From: a virus
Lineage: Duplodnaviria > Caudoviricetes
Length of the DNA: 64,000 bases
Reading direction: 5' to 3' (one strand)
Virus record (IMG/VR): IMGVR_UViG_2832928787_000001
Span: 1-64,000 of that record
The notes beneath the pieces were generated by a model. The model worked only from the letters and a program-made list of their open reading frames with translations, did no database searches and was not told where the DNA came from. Made by a program: the position numbers and the translations under genes. Positions 9,539 to 47,924 of the stretch are shown piece after piece. The number at the start of each line of letters is the position of its first letter. Within the stretch, counting starts at the first letter, position 1.

Positions 9539-10705
9539 TTATTCGCCGAGCACTTCGGTGATCCACTGGTTGGTCACCTCGACACGGAAGTTGGGGTTTT
9601 CAGCCGGCGGCACATCGGTGAAGCGGATGTTCCAGTACACGCGGCCCTCTTCCAGCTGGCTGGCGGTGTTCAGTTCCGGGTCAGGGAAACACTCGAAATT
9701 GATGACGGCGCCTGCACGTCGCAGATCACGCATGAACGCATTCAGGCCGTCAGTCACGTCCCGCACATAGGTTTTGGTGATGCCGCGGTCGACCGCCCAT
9801 TGGTGGCCGGCGAGGATCGCATCCATCACCATGTCGGTGGTGCGCACGCGGGTGACAAACGACCATTTCGGATCAGCCGACAGCGTGCGGTTACCCCACA
9901 GTCGGAAGCCGCCCTCGCGGATGATGGTGGTGACGTGGGCTTCGTTCAGCAGGTTGGCGCGGCAGGTCGCATCGCCGTACAGGTATTCGATCGGGCGCCC
10001 GGTGCCGATCACCTCGCTCAGTTCGCGGTTGGACGGACTGGCCCAGAATCCAACCTCGGCATCGGTTCGGGCGAACAGACCAGCGACGGCAGCCGAGGCC
10101 GGCACGTCGACCTCGGCATTGCTGGTGGTGTCCCACACCCGCACGCCGGGATCGACCAGGTACAGCCGTTTGCTGCCGAAATTTTTGGCATAGGCAATGG
10201 CGACATCGTCGTCCGTGTTCGGCCCGTCGATGATCGAGATGGCGCGCAACTTGTCGGCAATAACCTGACTCGATGCGGCCACCGCCTGAATCGAGCTGTG
10301 GCCCGGGCTGACCAGCAGCCGCGGGGCCAGATTCAGCAGCGATTTGGCATCCAGATGTGCCTGCATGCCGGTACGCGCGCCGCTGGCAGCAATGCCGCCG
10401 ATGATGGCGCTGGTCTGCGCTGCCGTGTCGGCCGCCTTCGCCACGCCGACCACCGAAACCGCCGCAGAGGATTGGGCAAAAATGCCTTTCAGCGCGCGGT
10501 AGATGGCACTGTCGTTGCCAAACGCAGCGGCACCCTCACGCAGCGTGGTGATTTTGACCGGCTTGTTCGGCTGGGCGAGGTCAGGGCCGGGGGTATAGGT
10601 GTCAGTCAGGCCAATGATCGACGACGACGGCAGCGCAATGGTGCGCGAGCCGGTATCGACCAGGGTAACGGTCACACCATGGTAAAAACTGCCGTTTCCG
10701 GGCAT
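9539..10705 (-). CDS. Tail sheath protein (P2 FI-like)
   Basis: FYHGVTV start, WASPSN, ANLLNE, GFRLWGNRT, VPPAE. Confidence 0.93.
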   Translation of the reverse strand: MPGNGSFYHGVTVTLVDTGSRTIALPSSSIIGLTDTYTPGPDLAQPNKPVKITTLREGAAAFGNDSAIYRALKGIFAQSSAAVSVVGVAKAADTAAQTSAIIGGIAASGARTGMQAHLDAKSLLNLAPRLLVSPGHSSIQAVAASSQVIADKLRAISIIDGPNTDDDVAIAYAKNFGSKRLYLVDPGVRVWDTTSNAEVDVPASAAVAGLFARTDAEVGFWASPSNRELSEVIGTGRPIEYLYGDATCRANLLNEAHVTTIIREGGFRLWGNRTLSADPKWSFVTRVRTTDMVMDAILAGHQWAVDRGITKTYVRDVTDGLNAFMRDLRRAGAVINFECFPDPELNTASQLEEGRVYWNIRFTDVPPAENPNFRVEVTNQWITEVLGE

Positions 10706-18352: not shown

Positions 18353-18900
18353 CGTGCGCGCCCCAGCATTTTTTCGACTTCGTAGTTGAGTTCCTGCCGC
18401 ATCAGTTCCTGCAGGCGGCCGGGGATCTGGTCGACGATCTGGTTGAAAGCGTCATTGGCGGCCGCTTCGATTTCGATCTTTTCCCGCTGGAACGGCAGTC
18501 TTTTCCGGGTTGTCCGGCTGTAGAGTTTTCCTTTGAACTTCGGGTTAATCGTCGGCACAAAGGCCCCCGGGAAATAAAAGTCCTTGACCCAATAGCCGCC
18601 CGCATCTTTCCTGGGCTTTGCCAGCGTGTCGGCGTTGATCGCATCAATACCAAACCAGACTTTGACAGCCGGGCCACCGCCTTCACCGTTGCGCCAGTTT
18701 TTGTTGTACAGCCTGATGCGGTGAATGATGACCTTGCGCCGGATGTCATGATCGCGCAGCCGTCTGAGCAGGTGCGTACGCACCCACAACGCGGTCTTGC
18801 GCACAGCACGCCGGGTCGCGGCCAGCAGCGCGGCGGGGGTCAGGCGCCGGCTCAGCAAGCCGAACGCGGCATCGTCAAAGTCGATCTTGACGTCGATCAT
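18349..18900 (-). CDS. Tail completion protein (gpZ-like)
   Basis: Basic ORF, RRAVRKTA.W, FPGAF, RLP, QELNY. Confidence 0.6.
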   Translation of the reverse strand: MIDVKIDFDDAAFGLLSRRLTPAALLAATRRAVRKTALWVRTHLLRRLRDHDIRRKVIIHRIRLYNKNWRNGEGGGPAVKVWFGIDAINADTLAKPRKDAGGYWVKDFYFPGAFVPTINPKFKGKLYSRTTRKRLPFQREKIEIEAAANDAFNQIVDQIPGRLQELMRQELNYEVEKMLGRAR

Positions 18901-19208
18901 CGCGTTTCCCTCTTCGGCCGGCGCAGCACCAGCACCGTATCCCCGGTGCCGTCCGGCTCGATATTGACCACCACGAATTCCCCCTCGCCCGGCACTTCAA
19001 CCAGCATGTCCCTGGCCACGCTGACTGCGTCCGCATCGCGGACAGTCAGCATCGGCTCTCGGAGGCTGGTGTTCAGCCTGCCCATCTGCGGTTGCAGCCA
19101 CGGTGCGGCGAACATGCCGCGCACCGGGCGGCCGTCGATCCGGACCGCATCGCCGAGCCGGTTGAAGATTTCCCGGTCCATGCGGTCGCTCAGTGCGCGG
19201 AAGTCCAT
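18897..19208 (-). CDS. Head-tail joining protein (gpFII-like)
   Basis: GMFAAPW, EPDGTG; follows the capsid gene. Confidence 0.7.
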   Translation of the reverse strand: MDFRALSDRMDREIFNRLGDAVRIDGRPVRGMFAAPWLQPQMGRLNTSLREPMLTVRDADAVSVARDMLVEVPGEGEFVVVNIEPDGTGDTVLVLRRPKRETR

Positions 19209-19209
19209 A

Positions 19210-20205
19210 TCAGGCTTTCAGTTCGATGCAGGCACGCGGGCGCGTGCACAGGTTCAACGGGTTGGACTGGCCTTCCAGTTCCACGCCCTTGCCGTGCCGC
19301 ATGATTTCCTGGCTGGAGTAGTACGGCAGGCCGTTGGTGTTGACGGTGTCCATGTAGTCGCCCGGGGCAAATCGGGTGATGAACAGGTCGGCAACCCCTT
19401 CCGGGTAGGCGATGGCACGGTCGTCGGGGATAAAGGACTTGTCACCGACCTTGCCGCGATAGCGCTCGAACACGCAGCCGCCGAACTCGATGGCTTCGCG
19501 CGGTTCGCCACGCAGGGCGGCAGCCAGTTCGCTGTTCAGATAGGTGGCCTCGAACGACGGCAGTGCCAGCAGCCTGGCCCAGAAGGTCTTGCCGCACTCG
19601 ACCCGCACACCGGTAAAGGTTGCCGCGCCAAGCGCGTCCTCGATCGCTTCCTGCAGTTCCAGGCACTTGCTGCGCAGGTGGGTGTCGTCCTTGCCCAGCT
19701 CAAAGTCGATGACGGTTTTTTTCAGGCCGAACGTCTGGTACAGGTCGAGCAGCACGCTGCTGCCGTCGGCATCGAGGATCAGGCCGCGCAGCGCGCCGAT
19801 GCGGTGGTATTCGATCGTGGCATCGAGCTGACGGCGGAATTTCGCCAGCCGCTTGTTGACCACGGTCTGCACCGACTCCAGTTCGGTTTCGCTGCCGAAG
19901 GCACGCAGGCCCTGAATTTCGTCGGCCATGATGGTGGCGGTCTGCGGCAGGTGGATGGTGTTGAACGGGATCATCTGCCGGCGGGTTCCGCCGACCACGA
20001 CGCCGGCGCTGCCACGCTGCCCGGCCGGGACCAGCACCAGGCTGTCGTTGTCCTTTTCGATCTGCACCGTGGTGGTGGTAATGCCCTCTTCCTCGAATAC
20101 GCCGAGGGCGGACAGGCGGCCGGGCTGGTGCGGCTGCTCGTTGATGGCGGCGGTCAGGCTGGACAGCGAGAACGCGTCGTCGTTGAAAATGTCGATGCTG
20201 GGCAT
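19210..20205 (-). CDS. Major capsid protein (lambda gpE family)
   Basis: FSLSSLTAAIN, ADEIQGLRAFG, TIEYHRIGALRG, QSNPL.LCTRP. Confidence 0.92.
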   Translation of the reverse strand: MPSIDIFNDDAFSLSSLTAAINEQPHQPGRLSALGVFEEEGITTTTVQIEKDNDSLVLVPAGQRGSAGVVVGGTRRQMIPFNTIHLPQTATIMADEIQGLRAFGSETELESVQTVVNKRLAKFRRQLDATIEYHRIGALRGLILDADGSSVLLDLYQTFGLKKTVIDFELGKDDTHLRSKCLELQEAIEDALGAATFTGVRVECGKTFWARLLALPSFEATYLNSELAAALRGEPREAIEFGGCVFERYRGKVGDKSFIPDDRAIAYPEGVADLFITRFAPGDYMDTVNTNGLPYYSSQEIMRHGKGVELEGQSNPLNLCTRPRACIELKA

Positions 20206-30848: not shown

Positions 30849-31137
30849 GGCCCCCTGAAGTCACAGGGTCACCACCGCATTCAGGCGACACCGGTTCAAG
30901 CAACGTATCGATTGCCTGAAGGCCGCGGGGTGGTTGATAACCTTGGCTGATCGCCACCAGTGCCACAGCCGCAACCGAAGAAGGCAGCGGTCGATACACC
31001 TCAAGCGGCGGAATAGCCGAGTGCCCTGCTGCCGATGACAACCGCTTGATCCAGACAGCCCCGTCCTTGAACTCGACCAGCCAGGTCGAGTCCGGGCGGG
31101 CACCCTCTTTCGTGTTCCTGCCGATTACGCTCATCAC
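30832..31137 (-). CDS. Hypothetical protein
   Basis: 101-aa ORF sharing its first five codons with the cII-like gene. Confidence 0.45.
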   Translation of the reverse strand: MMSVIGRNTKEGARPDSTWLVEFKDGAVWIKRLSSAAGHSAIPPLEVYRPLPSSVAAVALVAISQGYQPPRGLQAIDTLLEPVSPECGGDPVTSGGRDERN

Positions 31138-31252
31138 GGGGCCTCATAGACGTGTCATCACGCCAGCGGTGATGACATAGTTGTAAAAAGACCGAACGGA
31201 ACACGTCCGGCAAAAACTCCACGGGGGCAAAACGATCGTGGAGAGGGGGAGG

Positions 31253-31480
31253 TCAGCGACCAGCAGGGTTTCCGGGTTGCAACGATGGGTTGCCTTCATC
31301 GGCTTGGCACTGAAGACCTACCCATGCGGCCCAAGCATCTGGACGCAAGCGGACAATCCGCCCGACGGCCGAGTCCGGTATGTCGTCAGGCCATCCGTGA
31401 ACGCTGGGCGGCTTGATACCAATGGCCCTGGCTGTTCTAGATGGCCCTCCAAAATAAGAGAGGACAAATTGCTTTTTCAT
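31253..31480 (-). CDS. cro: Cro-like repressor
   Basis: YFGGPSRTARAIGIKPPSVHGW; divergent from cI; TATAAT just upstream of the ATG (leaderless). Confidence 0.85.
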   Translation of the reverse strand: MKKQFVLSYFGGPSRTARAIGIKPPSVHGWPDDIPDSAVGRIVRLRPDAWAAWVGLQCQADEGNPSLQPGNPAGR

Positions 31481-31486
31481 GAGGCA

Positions 31487-31551
31487 ATTATAGGCACACC
31501 TACTAGCCACGCACAAGGTATACCTATCGAACAGCCTGTTAGGCTCACCTA
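31487..31551. promoter_or_regulatory. OR region: three TAGG-N4-CCTA operators and PR
   Basis: taggcacaccta 31491, aaggtataccta 31515, taggctcaccta 31540; minus-strand ttgtgc-18-tataat. Confidence 0.8.
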
Positions 31552-31552
31552 C

Positions 31553-32257
31553 ATGACATTGGCTGAACGGGTTACCCTCGCACTGCACGAGGAAGGAAAA
31601 TCACAGACCGAGTTGGCGAAGGCCATCGGAGTACGGCCGCCATCAGTAAACGACTGGGTTTCCGGAAAGACCAAGACCATCAAGGGCGAGAATCTGCTGC
31701 GTGCCGCCAGCTACCTGCGCGTGCGGCCAGAGTGGTTATCCATGGGCCGGGGGCCAATGCGCCAGGAAGACCTGGGCACCCCCATCACAACCCCACTTCG
31801 CCCAGTAAAGTTGATCGACTCTGACGACGAACTGGATGACGGTGCATTTGCCGTGCCCAGGTACACATTGAAGGCCAGCGCAGGAAACGGCGCACCAGTA
31901 TTGGAAATCGACCAGAAAGGCCAATCCAACTACTGCCGGTACAACTGGGCAAACCGAAACGGCTTTCGTAGAGAAGACCTGTTCAGCATCGTCACAATTG
32001 GCGACAGCATGGAGCCGACCATCCCAGATGGCGCCAGCCTCATCGTGCATAAGAGTCAGGACATCGTGAATGGGAAGGTCCACGTCATTTGTCGCGGTGA
32101 CGAGTGTTTCGTGAAGCGCTTGTTCAAGCAGATGGATGGCTCGGTACTGATCAAGTCTGACAACCAGGCCAACTACAAAGACTCTGTTGCCAGACCTGAC
32201 GACGCTGACCCCCTATACGTTGTCGGTCACGTGGTGTCCGTCAGCTTCAACCTGTAG
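31553..32257 (+). CDS. cI: CI repressor (XRE HTH plus S24 peptidase)
   Basis: SQTELAKAIGV HTH, ASAG cleavage site, GDSMEP Ser and VKRL Lys. Confidence 0.93.
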   Translation: MTLAERVTLALHEEGKSQTELAKAIGVRPPSVNDWVSGKTKTIKGENLLRAASYLRVRPEWLSMGRGPMRQEDLGTPITTPLRPVKLIDSDDELDDGAFAVPRYTLKASAGNGAPVLEIDQKGQSNYCRYNWANRNGFRREDLFSIVTIGDSMEPTIPDGASLIVHKSQDIVNGKVHVICRGDECFVKRLFKQMDGSVLIKSDNQANYKDSVARPDDADPLYVVGHVVSVSFNL

Positions 32258-32274
32258 CCAACGCCCTCCCCACA

Positions 32275-32299
32275 AGAGCCCTGTTCACACAGGGCTTTT
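32275..32299 (+). terminator. cI terminator
   Basis: agccctgt-tcac-acagggct followed by T-run. Confidence 0.75.
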
Positions 32300-32337
32300 C
32301 TCATACCAGATTCCAGCAATTCTCCCCAAAGGCAAAT

Positions 32338-32388
32338 TAGGTTCACCTTCAAGTTTCGCTTGACCGGAACAGTAGGCGTGCCTATATT
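32338..32388 (+). promoter_or_regulatory. OL/PL-like promoter with two operators
   Basis: TTGACC(32360)-17-TATATT(32383); operators taggttcacctt 32338 and taggcgtgccta 32373. Confidence 0.8.
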
Positions 32389-32394
32389 TCACCT

Positions 32395-32707
32395 AACGCC
32401 ACGGCAACACACCGCCGACCGATCTCAGGAGCCCCCACGTGGGACCAGACAATTGAGCAGGATACGGATCGATAGCAGGCGGAGAGCGCCTGTCGTAGAC
32501 GGGGTCCCGCCGGCGCCCGAGAAGCCGAGCAAAACCCGCCGAGAGCAACAAGGCGGGCAGTCGGGGGACGAAGCGCACAGATGGCGCCGAGGACGAGCCC
32601 GACAATCGCCGCCCCGTGGCGAGTAACGGGAAAAGGAACGGCCTCGCAAGAGGCCGGTCACCAAAGCAGGCACACGCTGCATGCCATGCCCGCTTTGGCG
32701 ACATTTT
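32395..32707 (+). ncRNA. Candidate structured PL leader RNA (contains repeat copy A, 32535-32702)
   Basis: No credible ORF; successive hairpins, GCAA tetraloop and two possible pseudoknots. Confidence 0.55.
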
Positions 32708-32708
32708 C

Positions 32709-33500
32709 CTATTTGACTTGCGTCGCCAGTACGGCAACGACTTCTTGAGCTGCGCGCCTTTGTTCTGTGGTCAGGCGCCCGCAGTACAGATCGACATTGC
32801 CCTTGTCGCTGTCGTTCACCTTCGGATTGCCGGAGAACAGAATAAGCGCATACCAAGCGCAAGCTCTGACAGGGTTGTACGGAGCGCCCTGGGCACCAGT
32901 TGCAAGACTGTAAGCCGTATTTCGCTGCGCCTGGTAGTCACCGCCCTTGGCTTTTTTCTCCAGTGCCGCGAATGCTTCGGCACCATCGGCCAGTCGCTTC
33001 TTTTCTGCCTCGTCCGCTTCTTGCTCTGATTCAAGTACGGACATATCCGAAACCGGAATGAATTTCTCACCCTCAGGCGAAGAGCACAAAACAGCGCAAG
33101 AAGATTTTGATGTATAAATACCGGGCTTGAATCCGCCCCCCATATCAAAAGTGCAGACATGGCCGCTGGCCGTTCTCATGGCGTCGCCGGTTGTCGGGTC
33201 TCCTTTGACTTTCAACTCGACAGCGACCCCCTTATTCCAGCCATAGTCCGGCGTTTTTGGTAAAGCCGGGCCGGATTCAGCTTTGATGTATTCCAGATCA
33301 TTGGCACCGCTCGCAATATGGCGGCATTCTTTGGCAAATATCTGCAACGCTTTTTCCGCCGGATCGCCCATGGCAGAAAATGATTCACTTTTTTGATATG
33401 GCAAATCGGCGGATTTACTGCATCCAAGTAACGATGCCGCAACAAGAGAAACAGGAAGCAACCATTGCACACGTGTCTTCAGAGATATTTCTTTAGCCAT
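32709..33500 (-). CDS. Lipoprotein with C-terminal Sel1-like segment (moron)
   Basis: LLGC lipobox; GDYQAQRNTAY...ACAWY; own tttaca-16-TGaTAAAAT-type promoter. Confidence 0.75.
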   Translation of the reverse strand: MAKEISLKTRVQWLLPVSLVAASLLGCSKSADLPYQKSESFSAMGDPAEKALQIFAKECRHIASGANDLEYIKAESGPALPKTPDYGWNKGVAVELKVKGDPTTGDAMRTASGHVCTFDMGGGFKPGIYTSKSSCAVLCSSPEGEKFIPVSDMSVLESEQEADEAEKKRLADGAEAFAALEKKAKGGDYQAQRNTAYSLATGAQGAPYNPVRACAWYALILFSGNPKVNDSDKGNVDLYCGRLTTEQRRAAQEVVAVLATQVK

Positions 33501-33575
33501 GATTTCCCCAGGATGAGATAGCCTTCAGGCCATCATTTTATCACATCGGCATATCATGTAAAAACTGAGCGAATT

Positions 33576-33733
33576 CCCGCCGAGAGCAACAAGGCGGGCA
33601 GTCGGGGACGAAGCGCACCGAAGGCGCCAAGGACGAGCCCGACAATCGCCGCCCCGTGGCGAGTAACGGGAAGAGGAACGGCCTCGCAAGAGGCCGGTCA
33701 CCAAAGCTGAATCAGGTGGCTTTGGTGATACAC
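33576..33733 (+). repeat. Structured repeat copy B
   Basis: Near-identical to 32535-32667, then hairpin tcaccaaagc/gctttggtga. Confidence 0.95.
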
Positions 33734-33814
33734 AATGAAACACCTGCCCCTGCCCGGTTTGGCAGGACAGTCAAATCAGGCCAAAATGCCGTCATCATTC
33801 TTAGGAGACGCGGC

Positions 33815-34774
33815 ATGGCCCGGCACAGCAAGAACAGCGACAGTGCAATCTGGATCGGCGTATTTATCCTGGTCGTGGCCCCCATCGCCTTTTTCATCTG
33901 GCTTTATCAGCAGATCGGTGCATGGGGCATCATTGGCGTCGTAGGCATACTGGCGGCCCTCATTGCGACCGGATTCGCCGCTCACTTCTACAAGGAGAAA
34001 ACCGAAGCGGAAGCGCGGACGCAGCGCATCCAGCGTGACCTAGCCGAGATTGAACAGAAGCTGATCGAGGCCCGCCGACTGGGCACAGCACCATCTCCGC
34101 GTGCCATCCCTGAACAGCCCACGCTCAGCGACTTCGAGTGGGTCGGGGGCGGAGAAGCGGTCTCAGCCAACCTGCGGCTCCAGTATAAGGATGCGGCCGG
34201 CAACGTCACTGAGCGCACAGTTGAGGTCAAAGCCTTCACCGAACACCCGGCCGGCGGCATAGAAGCATTCTGCCACCTGCGCCAAAGCCGCCGCTCGTTC
34301 TACTACCACCGCATGCAGAAGGTCGTAGACCTGGACAGCGGCGAGGTCATCCACGAGCCGTGGGCCTGGCTGGATGCTCGCCGCAGGGCATCACCCGATT
34401 TCGCCCTGTCGGAAAACTTGTCCGCCATCTGGCCGGAACTGGAAGTGCTGGTCTATGTCTGCCGGGCAGACGGCCGCATGATGGCGCCTGAACGGGCGCT
34501 GGTTGTCAGCTATATGCAAAAGCGGAAACCTGAGCTATCAACCGTCTCCGTGGCAAAACTGGAAAAGGTACTGAAGGACGACGTAGCAAACCTGAGCCCC
34601 GCGCAATTCAAGCACTGTGTCGCCCAGTGCCGGCAACTGGATGAAGAAGTCCGGTCAGACCTGGTCAGCACGGCGGTAGCAGTTGTTGCGACACAAAGCA
34701 GTGTTGCCGAGGCAGAGGATGTGGCACTGGATTATCTGCATGAAAAATTGCTGGATCATGCTGAGCAGCCATAA
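33815..34774 (+). CDS. 2TM-WYL-TerB-like protein
   Basis: AGGAG RBS; two TM; YKD..GNVTERTV...AFCHLR..RRSF (WYL-like); LVYVCRADG...ER (TerB-like). Confidence 0.7.
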   Translation: MARHSKNSDSAIWIGVFILVVAPIAFFIWLYQQIGAWGIIGVVGILAALIATGFAAHFYKEKTEAEARTQRIQRDLAEIEQKLIEARRLGTAPSPRAIPEQPTLSDFEWVGGGEAVSANLRLQYKDAAGNVTERTVEVKAFTEHPAGGIEAFCHLRQSRRSFYYHRMQKVVDLDSGEVIHEPWAWLDARRRASPDFALSENLSAIWPELEVLVYVCRADGRMMAPERALVVSYMQKRKPELSTVSVAKLEKVLKDDVANLSPAQFKHCVAQCRQLDEEVRSDLVSTAVAVVATQSSVAEAEDVALDYLHEKLLDHAEQP

Positions 34775-34806
34775 ATCGCCCGAGGAACAGAACAAGCCCC
34801 GCTGCA

Positions 34807-34944
34807 GGCAGTCGGGGGACGAAGCGCACAGAAGGCGCCGAGGAAGAGCCCGACAATCGTCGGCCCCTGGCGAGTAACGGGCAAAGGAACGGCCTCGCAA
34901 GAGGCCGGTCACCAAAGCTGAACCAGGTGGCTTTGGTGATACAC
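34807..34944 (+). repeat. Structured repeat copy C
   Basis: Homologous to copies A and B from ggcagtcggggg to gctttggtgatacac. Confidence 0.95.
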
Positions 34945-35080
34945 TTAGCATTTTATTGGTAGACTTGCTCGCACCCAACAGTTTGCTAAATGGCAGCTTG
35001 TACAAAAAAATCAGGCAGGTTTGGGTCAGCAACAGCCCGTTGTGACCGGCTGCTACCGACCCGAAAGCAGACAGTCAAAT

Positions 35081-35141
35081 TGTTAACACCTGAGTTACGC
35101 CGCACCAAAAAGTGGCATCGGTTTTGAATGAATTGTTAGAT
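35081..35141 (-). mobile_element. Integron attC site 1
   Basis: Minus strand ATCTAAC aattc ATTCAA...GCGTAAC tcaggt GTTAACA; resembles aadA-type attC as recalled. Confidence 0.85.
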
Positions 35142-35930
35142 CACACCGAGCAGCCGTAGCACGCCTGCCCCTGCCAGCACAAAGCCGAGAAGCCCATATA
35201 ACCAATGCTCCTTCACAAGCTCCACGATGACAGAAGGATGAAAATGAATTCGATCTTGCCAAGGCGCCTGAATTGCGAGCGTACGGCTATGAGCACGGCC
35301 CGCGAGGTTGGCCATGACATCAACCTTTCGCAGAGTTGATTGATGCAGCTTTACAAACTCCCGGCTATCCCACGCCGCAGCTTCCGCTTTACCTGAGAGG
35401 AAATCTTGGTGGGTAATTTGGTTGAACTTCATGATCGACTCAAGCCGCGGATGGCCAGCGTAGCGAACACCGTAAATTGAGATCAAAACCCTAGATAGAT
35501 CCAGTTTCTTCTCGTCCTTGGTTTCATACGGAGCTCCACCTAGTACACGATGCCTATGCTCCAGCGCTTGGAACCCATAATTAATGTCTCTCATGCTCCA
35601 GTGCAGCCACGTACAATGCGTGTGGGTGGCTGCGAAGGCAAAAAACTCGTCAAGCATCTCGCGCTCAAGGCGATCATAGTGGCTTTCAATGTCCGCGAGA
35701 TCGACCTTCTGAATCTCCGCAATCTTGTGAATCGAGAAAGACCTAGTCTGACCAGAATCCAGCTGCCGGGCGGCGATGCTCGTGATGCGAGGGGTTCGGC
35801 CATCGACGCGATCGTAGAAGCTCTCGCATGAGTAGTGAATCACCAAGCAGTAATGGGCGTTCTTGAAGAGAACGTCGAGGGCTTCTGACGCCTTCTTTCT
35901 CTGCTTGTAGAGATCGAGGTATTTTCCCAT
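35136..35930 (-). CDS. Cassette gene: RNase H/3'-5' exonuclease-like protein with C-terminal TM
   Basis: IHYSCESF, ITSIA, EREMLDEFF, YGFQAL, LDLS; TAA stop lies inside R''; fold call tentative. Confidence 0.6.
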   Translation of the reverse strand: MGKYLDLYKQRKKASEALDVLFKNAHYCLVIHYSCESFYDRVDGRTPRITSIAARQLDSGQTRSFSIHKIAEIQKVDLADIESHYDRLEREMLDEFFAFAATHTHCTWLHWSMRDINYGFQALEHRHRVLGGAPYETKDEKKLDLSRVLISIYGVRYAGHPRLESIMKFNQITHQDFLSGKAEAAAWDSREFVKLHQSTLRKVDVMANLAGRAHSRTLAIQAPWQDRIHFHPSVIVELVKEHWLYGLLGFVLAGAGVLRLLGVI

Positions 35931-35935
35931 GTGTG

Positions 35936-35992
35936 ATCTAACGTTTGAGTTCAACGGACGCAAAGGTGGCCCGCTGGAACGAATGGTTATGT
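35936..35992 (-). mobile_element. Integron attC site 2
   Basis: Minus strand ACATAAC cattc GTTCCAGC...GTTGAAC tcaaac GTTAGAT. Confidence 0.88.
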
Positions 35993-36631
35993 ACCAAAAA
36001 ACTTTCCACCCAACGCAAAAGCGCCGGCCATGAGCACTGCGACGGCAGCCAGAACGCTCCATAGCTGAGTGAGTCTCAAACCACCGACTAGCTCCGCCAA
36101 CGTAAGCTCTGCAGGCCCCTTGGGCAGAGTTGATGTCTTCTTATCCGCAAGCATTTTTTGCTTCCAACTCGCAAGCACACCGTTGAACTCAGTCGTGCTG
36201 AGCGCAGCAGCTTCTGGTTTAACCCACTGTACATACCAATCATTGCCGGGTTCAAGCAATCCTTCGCTCTTTAGACCACTCTCTACGATGACCATTAACG
36301 GGTGGTTTCGGCTATAGGCCATGGCTGCCTCAATTTGGTTCCATGGCGTTGGTAGTTTTATATTAGAAAGTGACACCTCTTTCGAGCCACCGCGTTTCTC
36401 GATGCCGGAAGAAAAATACATACGTTCAAGGGCAATCACAACTGTGCCTGAGCACTCATCTAGAAGGTCGGACACGGTTTTAAGCGGTGCACCAGAACCA
36501 AACGTGTTTCTTCCAACAGTATAAGGAATCAACCCCTCGCTTCGAAGTCTGTCTTCAACTGCGCGGACGAAGGCTTCCTGCGAGTCTGTAGCTGTGCCAC
36601 CCACGCTAACAAAAACATTCAATTCATTCAT
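35987..36631 (-). CDS. Cassette gene: TIR-like domain protein with C-terminal TM
   Basis: NVFVS, ECSGTVVIAL, TPWNQIEAAMA (Glu), PLMVIVE; TAA stop inside R''. Confidence 0.7.
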   Translation of the reverse strand: MNELNVFVSVGGTATDSQEAFVRAVEDRLRSEGLIPYTVGRNTFGSGAPLKTVSDLLDECSGTVVIALERMYFSSGIEKRGGSKEVSLSNIKLPTPWNQIEAAMAYSRNHPLMVIVESGLKSEGLLEPGNDWYVQWVKPEAAALSTTEFNGVLASWKQKMLADKKTSTLPKGPAELTLAELVGGLRLTQLWSVLAAVAVLMAGAFALGGKFFGT

Positions 36632-36664
36632 GACAGGTCGTTCCGATTCATTGAATTGATTTAT

Positions 36665-36724
36665 ACCTAACAAACAAGATAAGCCGACCGCCGAAGCCGG
36701 GTCGGCTTGAGCGCCGGGTTAGAC
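36665..36724 (-). mobile_element. Integron attC site 3
   Basis: Minus strand GTCTAAC ccggc GCTCAAGC cgacc...ggtcg GCTTATC ttgttt GTTAGGT. Confidence 0.9.
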
Positions 36725-36793
36725 ATCATAAGATGCGACGGCAGCTCTCAGCCACGATGTGCCTTCGGGTATGTATTTCTTAATGTTGCTCAT
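36719..36793 (-). pseudogene. 24-aa ORF of a mini, probably internally deleted, cassette
   Basis: MSNIKKYIPEGTSWLRAAVASYDV; starts after GTTAGAG (36809-36803) and stops in R'' of attC3. Confidence 0.5.
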
Positions 36794-36906
36794 GCTCAAA
36801 GTCTCTAACTAGCTTTAGAAGGCACGCAACCAGCATGTTCAGTTCGCCTAAGACTGTATGAATTTTGGGTCAGTAGGCAAATTAGCTGTTTCGGCGTTTC
36901 GGTGTT

Positions 36907-36918
36907 TAGGCAAACCTA
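36907..36918. promoter_or_regulatory. Distal CI-type operator
   Basis: taggcaaaccta is a perfect TAGG-N4-CCTA. Confidence 0.55.
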
Positions 36919-37086
36919 AAAATTATGACCCCAGCTTTTGATGACGAATTTAGATCAATGTCTGAATGGCCACCATTGGCCGATAGCCGCCCCCGCTACC
37001 AAAACAGCCAAAGCCTCATCACACTTGCGTTTTATTGACATAGGCATAGCCAATTTATCACGACAAACACCAATCGACTACCCCCC

Positions 37087-37111
37087 GCCCAGCCCTGTGC
37101 TGGGCTTTTTT
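37087..37111 (+). terminator. Intrinsic terminator before the early-left genes
   Basis: gcccagc-cctgt-gctgggc plus T6. Confidence 0.75.
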
Positions 37112-37132
37112 CGCCTCCAAGGAGCACTGAAC

Positions 37133-37501
37133 ATGCGCATCGCAACTGAACAACTGGCCGACATCCGTGGCGGCCTGATGGTCGAGGAACTGACCGAGTC
37201 CCTGGCTGAAGTCGTCAACGCCGTCATCACCACCGGCAAGAAGGGCGCCGTGCAACTGAAGCTGGACATCAACCCCGCCAGCAAGGGCGACGCCGTGGTG
37301 ACGGTGACTGACGAGATCAAGAAGACCGTACCGCAGGAGAAGCGCACCGGCACGCTGATGTTCGCCACGCCGTCCGGCTCGCTCCAGCGGCAGGACCCGC
37401 GTCAGACCGATCTGCCCCTGGTCTCGACATCGGCCACGATGCCGACGCTGCAGTCCACTCCCACCGAATCCCCGTCGCTGCGCGTCGTCGGCGGCAACTG
37501 A
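37133..37501 (+). CDS. Conserved phage protein upstream of DUF2303 (YfdP-like)
   Basis: AAGGAG RBS; TGKKG..LKL.I.P and FATPSGSL.R.DPRQ. Confidence 0.75.
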   Translation: MRIATEQLADIRGGLMVEELTESLAEVVNAVITTGKKGAVQLKLDINPASKGDAVVTVTDEIKKTVPQEKRTGTLMFATPSGSLQRQDPRQTDLPLVSTSATMPTLQSTPTESPSLRVVGGN

Positions 37502-37528
37502 TTTCCCCACCCAACCGAAAGCCCCCCC

Positions 37529-38374
37529 ATGAACACCGAAAAGAACATTGTCGAATCGGCCATTCAGGCCGCAAGCAAGCCGTTTCTGATGGACATCAGC
37601 GGCACCCCGGTTCTGCTGATGCCCGATTGCAATGGTGGCTGGTCGCGCCAGGAACTGGACAAATACCGTACCGAGCCGCTGCGCAAGACTGGCGCAGTGG
37701 TCCTGCATCAGCTCGACAGCCTGCTGGCCTTCATCAAGGAGCACAAGGAATCCGGTACCCAACTGTTCGTCGATGCCGACTATGCGCAGGGCCGTGCGTC
37801 GTTCAAGGCCGTGCTCAACGGCCATACCGGCCCCCAGCCTGACTTCGGCGACTTCACGGCGCTGTACACCCCGATGAAGACGGTCGACTGGTCGAACTGG
37901 CTGGAAAGCAACGGCAAGAAGATGGACCAGGAAGAATTCGCCCGCTTCCTGCAGGACAACATTGCCAACATCGTCAGTCAGGATCCGGCCAATAGCAGCC
38001 GCCAGTACCCGGCCGCAGCCGACCTGCTGGAATTCGCCAGCAATCTGGAAATGACCAGCACCGTGCGCTTCCGCAGCAGCACCAAGGTGCAGAACGGCCA
38101 GGTGCAGTTTGAGTACGTCGAAGAGGGCGACAACAACACCAAAGGCCGTCTGCAGATGTTTGAGCGCTTCGGCCTCGGTCTGCAGCCGTTCGCAGGCGGT
38201 GACGCCTACTTCATCGAGGCGTTCCTGCGCTTCCGCATCGACCGCAACAGCGGTGAACTCAAGCTGTGGTACGACCTGAACCGCCCGGACAAGGCCCTGG
38301 AAAACGCCACAGAAAAGATGATCGAGCGCATCAAGGTCGAATCGGGCGTGCCGGTCTATTTCGGCAAGGCGTGA
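37529..38374 (+). CDS. DUF2303 / YfdQ-family protein
   Basis: AVLNGH, QEEFARFLQDN, LKLWYDL.RP, PVYFG. Confidence 0.82.
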   Translation: MNTEKNIVESAIQAASKPFLMDISGTPVLLMPDCNGGWSRQELDKYRTEPLRKTGAVVLHQLDSLLAFIKEHKESGTQLFVDADYAQGRASFKAVLNGHTGPQPDFGDFTALYTPMKTVDWSNWLESNGKKMDQEEFARFLQDNIANIVSQDPANSSRQYPAAADLLEFASNLEMTSTVRFRSSTKVQNGQVQFEYVEEGDNNTKGRLQMFERFGLGLQPFAGGDAYFIEAFLRFRIDRNSGELKLWYDLNRPDKALENATEKMIERIKVESGVPVYFGKA

Positions 38375-38575
38375 CAGTGTCCCCGCTGAAACTCACCTTC
38401 CTGTCCACCTGCGCCGGATTCGGCTTCGCCACTGGCGCAATCGCGGCGGTGGGCTGGGTCAAGGTTGCAGCCGATCTTTTCTCATAACCCCAGCCCGGCC
38501 CCGGCCGGGCCTACCGGATAGCCGCCCCACAGCTGCTACCCCGTGGGCCATGCCCCAACCACCAGGAGACCCATC

Positions 38576-38704
38576 ATGACCATGGAAGTGGTCGACATGA
38601 CCGACGACGCCATCAACGAGCTGCGCGCCAGCGGCTGGATCATCAAGGCCCCGTTCTTCCGCGACGGGCAGGCCGTATTTCTGGTTATCAAACTGCCGGC
38701 TTAG
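38576..38704 (+). CDS. Small hypothetical protein (42 aa)
   Basis: AGGAG RBS; MTMEVVDMTDDAINELRASGW... Confidence 0.45.
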   Translation: MTMEVVDMTDDAINELRASGWIIKAPFFRDGQAVFLVIKLPA

Positions 38705-38720
38705 CCGCGTCTCCCATGCT

Positions 38721-38804
38721 CATGAGCAGCACCAAAGCACGACATGAGCAGGTCATGAGCGGCACATGAGCGGCACATGAGCATGAAATGAGCACCCCAT
38801 GAGC
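38721..38804 (+). repeat. CATGAGC direct repeats in 11-bp phase (centromere/operator-like)
   Basis: Copies at 38721, 38743, 38754, 38765, 38776, 38787 (AATGAGC) and 38798. Confidence 0.85.
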
Positions 38805-39167
38805 AACCCTGACACCTGGCAACAGCAGGTCGCCGGGCAGTTGCGCCAGCTCGCGGCGGAACAGGCTGGCCCGAGCAAGGCTGCCCGGTTCCGGGCGCTG
38901 TTCCCTGACATCGAGGACGCCATGCGCCGTGGCTGTAGCCAGCGCGAGCTGATCGCCACCCTGGCCGGCAGCGGACTGACGATGACCCTGGACGAGCTGC
39001 GCAACGCCCTGTACCGCGAACGCAAACGACGGAAAGCGAGGCCGCCCGATGCGGCAACACATCCCCCGCCGCGACTGGCGCCACCGCCGGCCACCCCGGC
39101 TGCACCGGGTGCACCACCCGGCAGCTTTGACTGGCAACGCCACCGCGACAAGAAACCCAACTGGTAA
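38799..39167 (+). CDS. StbA/TraK-like DNA-binding protein
   Basis: KAARFRALFPDIE.A...G.S...I..L...GL...L..ALYR.R. Confidence 0.65.
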   Translation: MSNPDTWQQQVAGQLRQLAAEQAGPSKAARFRALFPDIEDAMRRGCSQRELIATLAGSGLTMTLDELRNALYRERKRRKARPPDAATHPPPRLAPPPATPAAPGAPPGSFDWQRHRDKKPNW

Positions 39168-42075: not shown

Positions 42076-42138
42076 CATTAACATAGAAGGTAAGCGGACT
42101 GCCGCTTGCTGCAGATTCGCTTGACTAAAAGGTTCGGT
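42076..42138 (-). mobile_element. Integron attC-like site 4
   Basis: Minus strand ACCGAAC ctttt AGTCAAGC...GCTTACC ttctat GTTAATG. Confidence 0.7.
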
Positions 42139-42261
42139 CTCTCGCTCCGAATGGCTGTTCAATAGAATATAAAAAATTGCCTGCCATTTAGACGGAAAAG
42201 CGCCGAATGGAACCAAAAAATATAGCTTTGGAGCGTCTGTTTGACGGATTTTTAGCCACTT

Positions 42262-42660
42262 TCATTTGATTCTCCGCTGCTTCAGCAGCTTGTCAATTTC
42301 ATTGATGGCGTTTTTTTCTTCTATCTGAAAGGAGTTGGGCTCAATAGTCGCCTTCAATGATTGAAATCCGAGAAAAATAGAGGCGACACCCAAGATAAAA
42401 GATGTAAGGTCGGCTTGGCCATTGAAGGCCGCCCAACCTGCTGCAGCGCAAAACAAGACCAGGCTGAGACCGTAAATTGGTTTTAACTGTTTAACTTTCC
42501 GAGACTGCTCGAGGCGAATGTTTTCTTGCCTGAAAGGCCGTTCTTGCAATAATTCTTCACTTGAACAGTGAACTAACAGCCTGTGCTGGTTTTGCGAATT
42601 ATCGTTGACATTAAAATCGCCCTGGATATTTATTTGTCCATCATTGTTGAAATCGCGCAA
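42262..42660 (-). CDS. 2-TM membrane protein in a decayed cassette
   Basis: TTG start after GAGGAGG; AT-rich; flanked by GTTAGCA and GGCTAAA. Confidence 0.65.
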   Translation of the reverse strand: MRDFNNDGQINIQGDFNVNDNSQNQHRLLVHCSSEELLQERPFRQENIRLEQSRKVKQLKPIYGLSLVLFCAAAGWAAFNGQADLTSFILGVASIFLGFQSLKATIEPNSFQIEEKNAINEIDKLLKQRRIK

Positions 42661-43046
42661 TCGTGGCCTCCTCAGTCACGGATAAAGTGAATTTGCTTCA
42701 TGCTAACGGCTATCGACCAGTTAGGCCATATCCCCTTACATCACCTCGTGGTTATGTGTGCAAAGAGTATTTGCGGCGAACGTTCAGCGTTTCCGACCTC
42801 CGCCTATTCGACGGTACCGTTGATCCAAACCTGTCGTTTTTTTGGTGGGTGTTCGAGCATGTACTCAACAGCAACCATCAAATACCCACAGTTGACATTA
42901 GCATAACCACTCTACCACAACAAATTCCCAGCTTTCCACCCCGAACCCGCCCCCGATGGCGGGTTCGTCGTTTTCGACACCCCGCTGACACCCGGCACGC
43001 TCCCGGCGTGAGGTTGGGTACCGGCTGAACATATGGAGGTCATTGC

Positions 43047-46839: not shown

Positions 46840-47924
46840 CTCGCCCCAGAAAGAAAAATCGCGATCTCCCACCGCGCATGTACCTGAAGCATGGCGCCTA
46901 TTACTACGTCACCCCAGCAAAGAAATGGATACGTCTATCCAGCAATCTAGAGGAGGCCAAGAGAAAGTGGGTCGAACTGGAAGCGCCATGCATGATGCCG
47001 TCGCAAGGCATGCTGGCGTTATTAAATCGCTATTCTGTCGAGGTGCTGGCAAATAAATCCCCCAAGACCAGACAATTGCAGGAACCGCAAATGAAGCCAC
47101 TTGAAGCTGCGTTTGGCGATATGCGACCGGATGAAGTTAGACCGGTACACATTGCCCAATATCTCGATTACAGAGCAAGCAAAGACGCCCCGGTCGCGGG
47201 AAACCGGGAAAAGCAGTTACTGTCTCACGTTTTCACCATGGCAATGCGCTGAGGTATCGTAGACACCAATCCGTGCAAAGGCGTAACCCGGAACAAGGAA
47301 GTGCCGCGCACCCGATATGTCTCCGACCAGGAACTGGGCGACTTTATACAGTTCGCAAGAGACCTGAAAGTGGGGATGCTGAAAATCCGGGTCGATGATG
47401 ACGGGAATGTACTGATGCCACAGCGAACGGCGAAGCGCTATACACGGCCACTTGCAAGTGGGCAGGTGGTTTCCAGCGTGCTGGACATTGCCTATCACAC
47501 TGCCCAGCGCCGCCAGGATGTCCTGGCGCTTACTCTCGATGACATCACTGATGCAGGCATACTGTTCCGGCAGCGGAAAACGCAGGATACCGCGCCGGTC
47601 AAAGTCCTGGTCAGCTGGAAGCCGGGCTTGCGCGAGGCCGTCAGGGTCGCCATGACCCTACCCCGCCGAGCCGGGTTCCTGTTCGAGACCCGCGGGCATC
47701 CCTATACCGACGACGGGTTCAGTTCCCTGTTCCAGCGAATCATGCGCACCTGGGGTTTACTGGGCCATGAGCGGTTCACGGTTCACGATCTGCGCGCCAA
47801 GGGCGCAACCGACCTACTCGATCAGGGGGCTCAGGCAATAGACACTACGGGGCACGCCTCGGACAGCATCCTGAGGAGGGTCTATGACCGGCGCAGAACG
47901 CGCCGAGGGACGGCTGTGAAGTGA
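46836..47924 (+). pseudogene. int: Tyrosine integrase interrupted by one in-frame TGA (47250-47252)
   Basis: AMR*GIVDTNPC reads through in frame to TAQR, HDLRAK, GH and VYDR. Confidence 0.88.

Follow-up and report, generated by a model that had tools for sequence, protein, structure and literature searches.

A three-cassette attC array without an integron integrase inside a prophage

The DNA considered here, referred to as the window, is a stretch of 64,000 nucleotides (positions 1 to 64,000) of the viral record IMGVR_UViG_2832928787_000001 (Duplodnaviria; Caudoviricetes). The record as a whole is an 88,758-base provirus and is actually made up of two related prophages side by side, here called prophage A and prophage B. 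Within prophage A, on the minus strand from 36825 to 35081, lie three open reading frames (ORFs), every one of which has its TAA stop codon inside a heptamer of the form RYYYAAC, with a GTTRRRY heptamer completing each site at a length of 57–61 nt. The sites are those of integron gene cassettes (attC), and the three-cassette block that they close (35087-36808, minus strand, 1,722 bp) is almost certainly a real cluster of attC sites lacking an integron integrase (CALIN) inside a prophage. Such a cluster had been proposed from the letters of the DNA (the sequence-only reading), and the covariance model scores, the BLAST matches and the flanking phage genes described below bear it out. The G+C content of the array is 51%, compared with 61–64% in the flanking phage DNA.

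The cassettes and their attC sites

The array was read directly on the minus strand, to which all coordinates of cassettes 1 to 3 and their sites refer, and the three attC sites, with the cassette genes stopping inside the R'' core, are as the sequence-only reading had described them. Cassette lengths were set with the crossover between G and TT (written G/TT below), and all three cassettes are in canonical orientation. Cassette 1 (36671..36808, 138 bp) consists of a 24-codon ORF (36793..36719) and attC1 (36724..36665, 60 nt, GTCTAAC...GTTAGGT). Cassette 2 (35942..36670, 729 bp) holds an ORF of 214 amino acids (36631..35987) and attC2 (35992..35936, 57 nt, ACATAAC...GTTAGAT), and cassette 3 (35087..35941, 855 bp) an ORF of 264 amino acids (35930..35136) and attC3 (35141..35081, 61 nt, ATCTAAC...GTTAACA). 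All three sites have inverted outer cores, R'' (RYYYAAC) and R' (GTTRRRY), within 40–200 nt of each other, and the extrahelical C of the L'' box is retained in each. The R'' of attC2 departs from the consensus at one position, and the same ACATAAC is found in the real attC of qnrVC1; the R' of attC3 departs from it at two, and GTTAAAC exists among real sites. From start to start, attC1 and attC2 are 732 nt apart and attC2 and attC3 851 nt, the default of IntegronFinder for clustering a CALIN being 4 kb. Where a CALIN calls for at least two nearby attC sites with no intI close by, three are present here.

The ends of the cassettes carry a further signal. If each cassette was once a circle, its start should be complementary to its own R'', and the opening six bases of every cassette do complement that core, exactly in cassette 3 (GTTAGAT/ATCTAAC) and with one mismatch each in cassettes 1 and 2, in agreement with the sequence-only reading. 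At the four variable positions, R' and R'' match at 10 of 12 when compared cassette by cassette and at 5 of 12 when the R' and R'' of each site are compared with each other, which is the pattern of real cassettes.

Two covariance models were built for this analysis and are distinct from that of IntegronFinder. R1 was made from ten 60-nt attC sites out of 15 from five real arrays, with the textbook pairing, and R2 from 91 matches taken from arrays of chromosomes, metagenomes and plasmids, 9 rows of which are reverse-strand duplicates; neither includes a sequence from the record. Both models match all three sites. R1 does so at full length and at coordinates identical to those read by eye, with scores of 50.3 (attC1), 28.6 (attC2) and 35.0 bits (attC3), the R2 scores being 54.0, 41.8 and 29.5 bits, and the full-length model matches at the three sites have E values of 1e-6 to 1e-15. 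R1 is narrow, since it missed two held-out real sites, those of dfrA1 and qnrVC1; other held-out sites scored 42.9 (cmlA5), 15.6 (arr-3) and 11.3 bits (blaSIM-1), so that the scores of the window's three sites fall inside the range set by real sites or exceed it. As a negative control, related phage DNA gave at best 10.9 bits in 70,401 bases and 14.9 bits in 416,576 bases. With filters off, R1 found nothing beyond the three sites above 10.4 bits between 30 and 40 kb. A match elsewhere in the window (10517-10571, minus strand; R1 19.0, R2 17.6 bits) falls within a long tail-module ORF, at 64% G+C and not at a gene end, and was judged to be due to chance. Rfam gave no match within the window.

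When the region was compared by BLAST with 72,556 plasmids, 4,595 records matched, the best with an E value of 5e-7, and the matches fell on attC1 and attC3 only. Those that are annotated are the ends of aadB, aadA2, fosE, aadA12/15 and a 'DUF1010'-annotated cassette in class 1 arrays headed by intI1. As sole query attC3 matched 2,950 plasmid records, and attC2 gave only chance-level matches (8 records, E of 2 or worse). attC3 is 77% identical to the attC of aadA2 and is of the aadA2/aadB type, and attC1 is 82% identical to an attC that overlaps a 'DUF1010'-annotated ORF of plasmid pKPN5. That ORF, named as a DUF1010 domain-containing protein in a class 1 integron (2573-2818 of the plasmid sequence compared), runs through the attC at 2761-2820, so that part of the annotated protein, if not all of it, is translated attC.

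Identity of attC1 to attC3 to the sites of class 1 and class 2 cassettes (aadA1/2, aadB, catB3/8, aac(6')-IIa, sat2, 'DUF1010') is 72–82%. They share the 60-nt architecture of R'', a 5-nt spacer, L'' with an extrahelical base, a GC stem, L' and R', and are of the same sequence family as the attC sites of the aadA, aadB, catB and sat2 cassettes. Unlike those cassettes, the ones found here have non-resistance cargo, more mismatches in the stem, and no intI1, attI1 or 3' conserved segment.

Cassette genes

For the 78-nt unique part of cassette 1 no similarity was found. The product of cassette 2 has an N-terminal alpha/beta domain and a C-terminal hydrophobic helix; its predicted fold is poor (pLDDT 57.5), too poor for a structure search, and a TIR-like link, from an Atlas score of 0.80–0.83 and one UniRef name, is a lead only. 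Its 1,091 homologues come from several phyla, with 72–94% identity among the matches listed; a sample of 401 genomes gave one partial match, which is uninformative. Among 80 metagenome loci with a cassette-2 homologue, 16 have attC matches, and all 34 of these matches lie on the strand of the gene. attC2 aligns with the attC that follows cassette-2 homologues, with 81% identity to the one behind the homologue in locus L144, which makes it the cognate site of the family to which the cassette-2 gene belongs. This accounts for its weak score with R1, a model of the aadA type.

The product of cassette 3 is predicted (pLDDT 83.6) to have a DEDD/RNase T-like exonuclease fold, followed by a C-terminal hydrophobic helix. 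Foldseek matched the model to RNase T and to the exonuclease domains of family B polymerases (PolB), with E values of 7e-4 to 3e-3 and TM-scores of ~0.3–0.5, and the resemblance to exonucleases is therefore weak. The protein belongs to phrog_8766 (E 9e-64) and has 2,872 homologues in several phyla, with 51–93% identity among the matches listed. In the best 80 of 400 genome loci, the neighbourhood of the homologue contains attC matches in 21, of which 19 have them on the gene's strand, and in 11 loci the match begins at most 60 nt past the gene. The integron integrase, IntI, was found above the curated cut-off in all five genomes tested among the carriers, and in two of them its coordinates place it within the locus compared (L068 and L096), ahead of the array that holds the cassette-3 homologue. 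The closest homologue, with 88% protein identity, is in a metagenome-assembled genome of Lysobacterales and is followed by a 111-nt attC; attC3 matches both ends of this longer site, the middle part of which is missing in attC3. Homologues of these genes in other genomes thus carry attC flanks, and attC covariance models do match the sites, contrary to the refuting condition named in the sequence-only reading. Cassettes 1 and 2, and cassette 4 of prophage B described below, do not co-occur with cassette 3 in the best 80 loci and are thus independent units; cassettes 2 and 3 were ruled out as a gene pair on the same observation.

Phage defence systems encoded by integron cassettes have reportedly been described in bioRxiv papers. 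From their predicted features, a TIR-like domain in the one and a DEDD-exonuclease-like domain in the other, each with a putative membrane helix, the products of cassettes 2 and 3 are plausible candidates for single-gene defence or superinfection exclusion. A defence-type function of the cargo is tentative, and we would lean slightly against it. The families of the two larger cargo genes, both highly conserved and found very widely, have no assigned function, which makes them good candidates for functional tests.

Phage setting and further cassettes

The array lies within the phage genome, in a variable accessory gap, as follows from the flanking phage genes, the synteny and the variation in gap length. 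Genes typed by PHROG stand on both sides of it. The left landmark of the gap is a CI-like repressor gene (helix-turn-helix and S24 peptidase; 31238..32257, plus strand), assigned from Pfam and synteny, and the right landmark is formed by the first early genes, phrog_204 and DUF2303 (37133..38374, plus strand). The order primase, CI-like repressor, phrog_204, DUF2303 is retained in related viral contigs; in five of these, the primase is ahead of the early genes in four and the CI-like repressor ahead of phrog_204 and DUF2303 in three. The gap from the repressor to phrog_204 measures 0.3 kb in contig L011, 2.4 kb in L012, 6.7 kb in L010 and 4.9 kb here.

Prophage A extends over ~1.4–50 kb. Its minus strand carries genes for tail, tape measure, protease, portal, terminase and primase, and its plus strand the CI-like repressor, the early genes from 37133, a methyltransferase gene and a fragment of a phage integrase (207 amino acids, 47301-47924). 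Prophage B (~51–88.7 kb) has genes for a tail fibre, baseplate, sheath, YqaJ/RecT, a methyltransferase and the only full-length phage integrase (87421-88758). The two have common sequence only in the methyltransferase region, each with its own structural module. By large terminase the nearest cultured phages are those of P. aeruginosa, at 57–60% identity, a measure of kinship of the phage and not an identification of the host.

To the left of the array the gap contains a structured repeat of ~130–160 nt in three copies 84–93% alike (32535-32693, 33576-33733 and 34785-34944, plus strand), interleaved with a lipoprotein gene (32709-33500, minus strand) and a gene for a protein with two transmembrane helices and a WYL-like domain (33809-34774, plus strand). 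The repeat holds a GGCCTC-GCAA-GAGGCC hairpin and a terminal hairpin, the stem of which is constant and the loop variable among the copies. No Rfam match was found for the repeat region. A 33-nt core of the repeat is also present in one other viral contig, and metagenome contig depth rises several-fold over the repeat relative to the adjoining sequence. The repeat may encode an unnamed small RNA or act as a recombination module. In the product of 33809-34774, the two membrane helices are N-terminal and the domain matches the WYL part of PADLOC RTasWYL-YodC (E 8.6e-9), with a sub-threshold match to SLATT_1; by these matches it may be a further defence-like moron in the same gap. Past attC3, a hairpin at ~35059-35020 was considered as a terminator, the T run being 13 nt distant, and no claim is made for it. 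A simple scan of 34700-37300 found no sigma-70-like promoter.

A further cassette, cassette 4, is present in prophage B, outside the window, between recT and the methyltransferase gene (record 82443-83628, minus strand; 18543-19728 of the record segment L008). Its ORF (L008 19506..18625) encodes 293 amino acids at 39% G+C and stops in an R'' of sequence GTATAAC; the protein has 126 homologues and falls into no family. attC4 (L008 18630..18543, 88 nt) scores 18.1 bits with R1 and 29.6 bits with R2, and the insert stops exactly at it. With one attC directly after the gene and no other att site or intI nearby, cassette 4 is a single attC site lacking an integron integrase (SALIN). A 5' boundary of this cassette at GTTATGC was refuted, the motif being backbone common to contig L010 and prophage A.

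A possible degenerate fifth attC lies in prophage A at 42077..42138 on the minus strand (R2 18.4 bits, E 0.002–0.03). It lies at the 3' end of a low-GC insert (~42077-42867, GC 0.47) which contains an ORF of 132 amino acids (42660..42262) and is found a short way upstream of the gene for the methyltransferase. The two prophages and L010 have ~185 nt of common backbone here and then three different inserts from one breakpoint. This region, upstream of the methyltransferase, may be another hot spot of accessory genes in the phage.

Entry of the array and its meaning

The two ends of the array bear on how it arrived. The upstream junction (36803..36825, minus strand) consists of phage-side TTCTAA, a spacer AGCTA and G/TTAGAG, with a putative crossover at G36809/T36808, the boundary being provisional. 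The downstream end falls at G35087/T35086, the crossover base of attC3, so that both ends are at G/TT, and the bases beyond attC3 are unlike any cassette. The junction differs by one mismatch from the complement of the attC1 R'' (6 of 7 positions match). Ends at G/TT together with a stop at the crossover of attC3 would be the product expected of recombination by IntI between an attC and a genomic site. The motif at the junction and an attC that closes the insert on its 3' side fit a product of this attG type; an empty-site relative is not among the sequences compared.

As the record encodes no integron integrase, the enzyme would have had to work in trans. From a gene elsewhere in a host cell, an integron integrase would have recombined an excised cassette circle, or a circle of several cassettes, through its own attC with a non-att (attG-type, G/TT) site in the resident prophage. 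The reconstructed uninterrupted target would read ...AGCTAG/TTAACAATT..., and the R' of attC3, GTTAACA, would be a hybrid of attC3 and this target. A single cassette would have entered the neighbouring prophage likewise, the phage would then carry the cassette genes as morons, able to move them between hosts, and attC2 and attC3 would later have lost most of their hairpin stability. The sequence-only reading had offered two possibilities, that the block was captured whole or that it was built by IntI in trans, and either is something that we infer. Taken as a whole, with the mechanism of entry included, a genuine three-cassette CALIN in a prophage is the best explanation, at a probability of about 0.55, and entry at a secondary site through IntI would by itself seem somewhat favoured.

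Several observations weigh against this explanation. IntI was not found in the 88,758-base record, where the best match to TIGR02249 scores 19.1 bits with a cut-off of 265; the sequence-only reading had reported no intI in the window, and this extends to the whole record. The combination of intI, adjacent attI and cassette promoter that makes a complete integron is lacking. An empty site was found neither by megablast of 31000-39000 against phages nor in an exact-pattern scan with the right flank; the five related viral contigs have in common with the window only 37088-38546 and short stretches, the sister prophage matches only in the methyltransferase region, and apart from the repeat next to the array, its flanks have no counterpart in any locus compared. 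Both the precise target and the 5' boundary of cassette 1 are accordingly putative. The junctions of the cassette-4 locus show no clean G/TT signature. No family was found for cassettes 1 to 4 in Pfam, PADLOC or NCBIfam, and so no defence family for the cargo in these databases. The cassette-3 family is a PHROG and is also present in Bacillota and cyanobacteria, which implies that it moves by non-integron routes too.

The folding of the sites belongs with these points. The bottom strands of eight real attC sites, folded as single-stranded DNA, reach -14.0 to -35.3 kcal/mol (z -1.7 to -7.4). That of attC1 gives -13.4 kcal/mol (z -2.7), with R''/R' open in the lowest-energy fold, and that of attC4 -11.8 kcal/mol, but attC2 (-4.6 kcal/mol, z +0.5) and attC3 (-3.1 kcal/mol, z +0.9) fold no better than shuffled sequences. 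In the stem of attC2, two positions that are paired in the site of the L144 homologue are G-T here, and in attC3 5 of 21 (R1) or 6 of 21 (R2) model pairs are broken. Both sites are homologous to attC but decayed, and from these predicted folds their present-day competence for recombination is doubtful. With the hairpin stability of the two sites lost, the block looks old and partly fixed, and is probably no longer freely shuffled.

The weak folds could also be taken to mean that the sites are chance look-alikes or ordinary terminator hairpins rather than attC, the more so as attC2 has no BLAST match of its own and a terminator-pattern scan also picks attC1. This is refuted by the full-length model matches, by the thousands of BLAST matches at the ends of real cassettes and by the conservation of cognate gene-attC units in other genomes, and related phage DNA gives nothing comparable. 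It has also been suggested, in the sequence-only reading, that the motif CTTCTAA-agcta-GTTAGAG, which is present at 36825..36803, is a simple attI-like site. If so, it would be a working site reused by the IntI of the host, and the phage a dedicated landing platform, an integron platform without an integrase. The repeat TCTAA-N6-TTAGA around G/TT does resemble in layout the attI1 simple site CCTAA-N7-TTAGG, and in metagenome run X18 one contig joins 36712, in an attC1-like 32-nt stretch, to 36992, a hint only, which may mean that a relative has another cassette here. However, half of the repeat (TTAGAG) is DNA of cassette 1 and not of the phage, the junction has no sequence similarity to attI1 and is unscored by either R1 or R2, and no related contig retains the flank. 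attI sites are, moreover, specific to their cognate integrase. The attI-like label is not supported as stated, and a landing platform is very improbable.

Capture without IntI is the strongest of the alternatives, although it would seem rather unlikely. A fragment of a chromosomal integron array of the host would have entered the gap by illegitimate or homologous recombination, and the attC-core ends would be fortuitous or secondary. The gap is hypervariable among relatives, as in ordinary moron exchange, and metagenome contigs of related phages have other sequence from ~34918 to 36977-37120, with loose ends. The three repeat copies beside the array could drive such exchange, and at the locus upstream of the methyltransferase three phages have different inserts from one breakpoint with no G/TT signature. 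Against this, the end of the array coincides exactly with the crossover base of attC3 and its start with a G/TT that has the 6/7 match to the complement of the attC1 R'', the single cassette of the second prophage likewise ends exactly at its attC, and there is no partial cassette or extra attC past either end of the array. Other metagenome data do not decide between capture and entry through IntI. In contigs from four runs there is cover over the flanks but scarcely any, or none, over the array, which proves nothing alone; in run X18 one contig joins 33799 to 37001, again a hint only; and run X17 contains both array junctions with no differences, probably from the same strain.

CALINs of phages have already been published, and the present case adds another member of that kind. 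The available text of Qi, Rajabal, Ghaly, Tetu and Gillings (2023, Front Microbiol, PMC9892861) reports a screen of 10,705 phage genomes that gave 3 integrons, one In0 and 17 CALINs, with some phage attC sites recombining with attI1, so that the description of such cassettes as rarely reported in phages was fair. The array in prophage A resembles those CALINs, as that text describes them, in being a phage-borne cluster of attC sites and cassettes with no integron integrase and with cargo of unknown or accessory function. It differs from them in its place in a Pseudomonas-phage-like prophage, with the repressor on one side and the early genes on the other, in the structural erosion of two of its three sites and in the presence, in the same record, of a second prophage with its own single cassette. 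The same text describes prophages of Vibrio anguillarum that carry a piece of the sedentary chromosomal integron of the host at the prophage end, explained by excision at an attC of the host array; these too are temperate phages with host-integron cassettes, whereas the array here is internal and far from the phage ends.

Insertion by IntI at genomic sites, between an attC and a GWT consensus, has been shown experimentally in bacterial genomes (Loot et al., bioRxiv 10.1101/2022.09.11.507474), and the available part of that preprint proposes SALINs and small CALINs as insertion products that are later domesticated. The cassettes described here are like these in lying outside an integron with no intI or transposon nearby, and G/TT fits GWT. 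Theirs are in bacterial chromosomes, as far as that text goes, whereas here the targets would be prophages.

What is particular to this case is the class 1-type attC, the internal position in the prophage, a second and perhaps a third insertion in the record, and the eroded hairpins, which show how inserted cassettes turn into fixed phage morons. Cassettes with class 1-type attC sites reach temperate phages of Pseudomonas-like hosts, and transduction with lysogeny offers a physical route for the spread of cassettes without a plasmid or transposon. Separate insertions in two prophages of one record point to an active integrase in some past host. A bolder proposal, and a distinctly unlikely one, is that in this lineage of phages host IntI enzymes repeatedly deliver cassettes to two places, the gap between repressor and early genes and the breakpoint ahead of the methyltransferase, that these phages are shuttles transducing environmental cassettes, and that the cargo consists of compact single-gene exclusion or defence modules serving the prophage. 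If this were true, the phages of the lineage would sample the environmental cassette pool and transduce cassettes between hosts without an integron integrase of their own.

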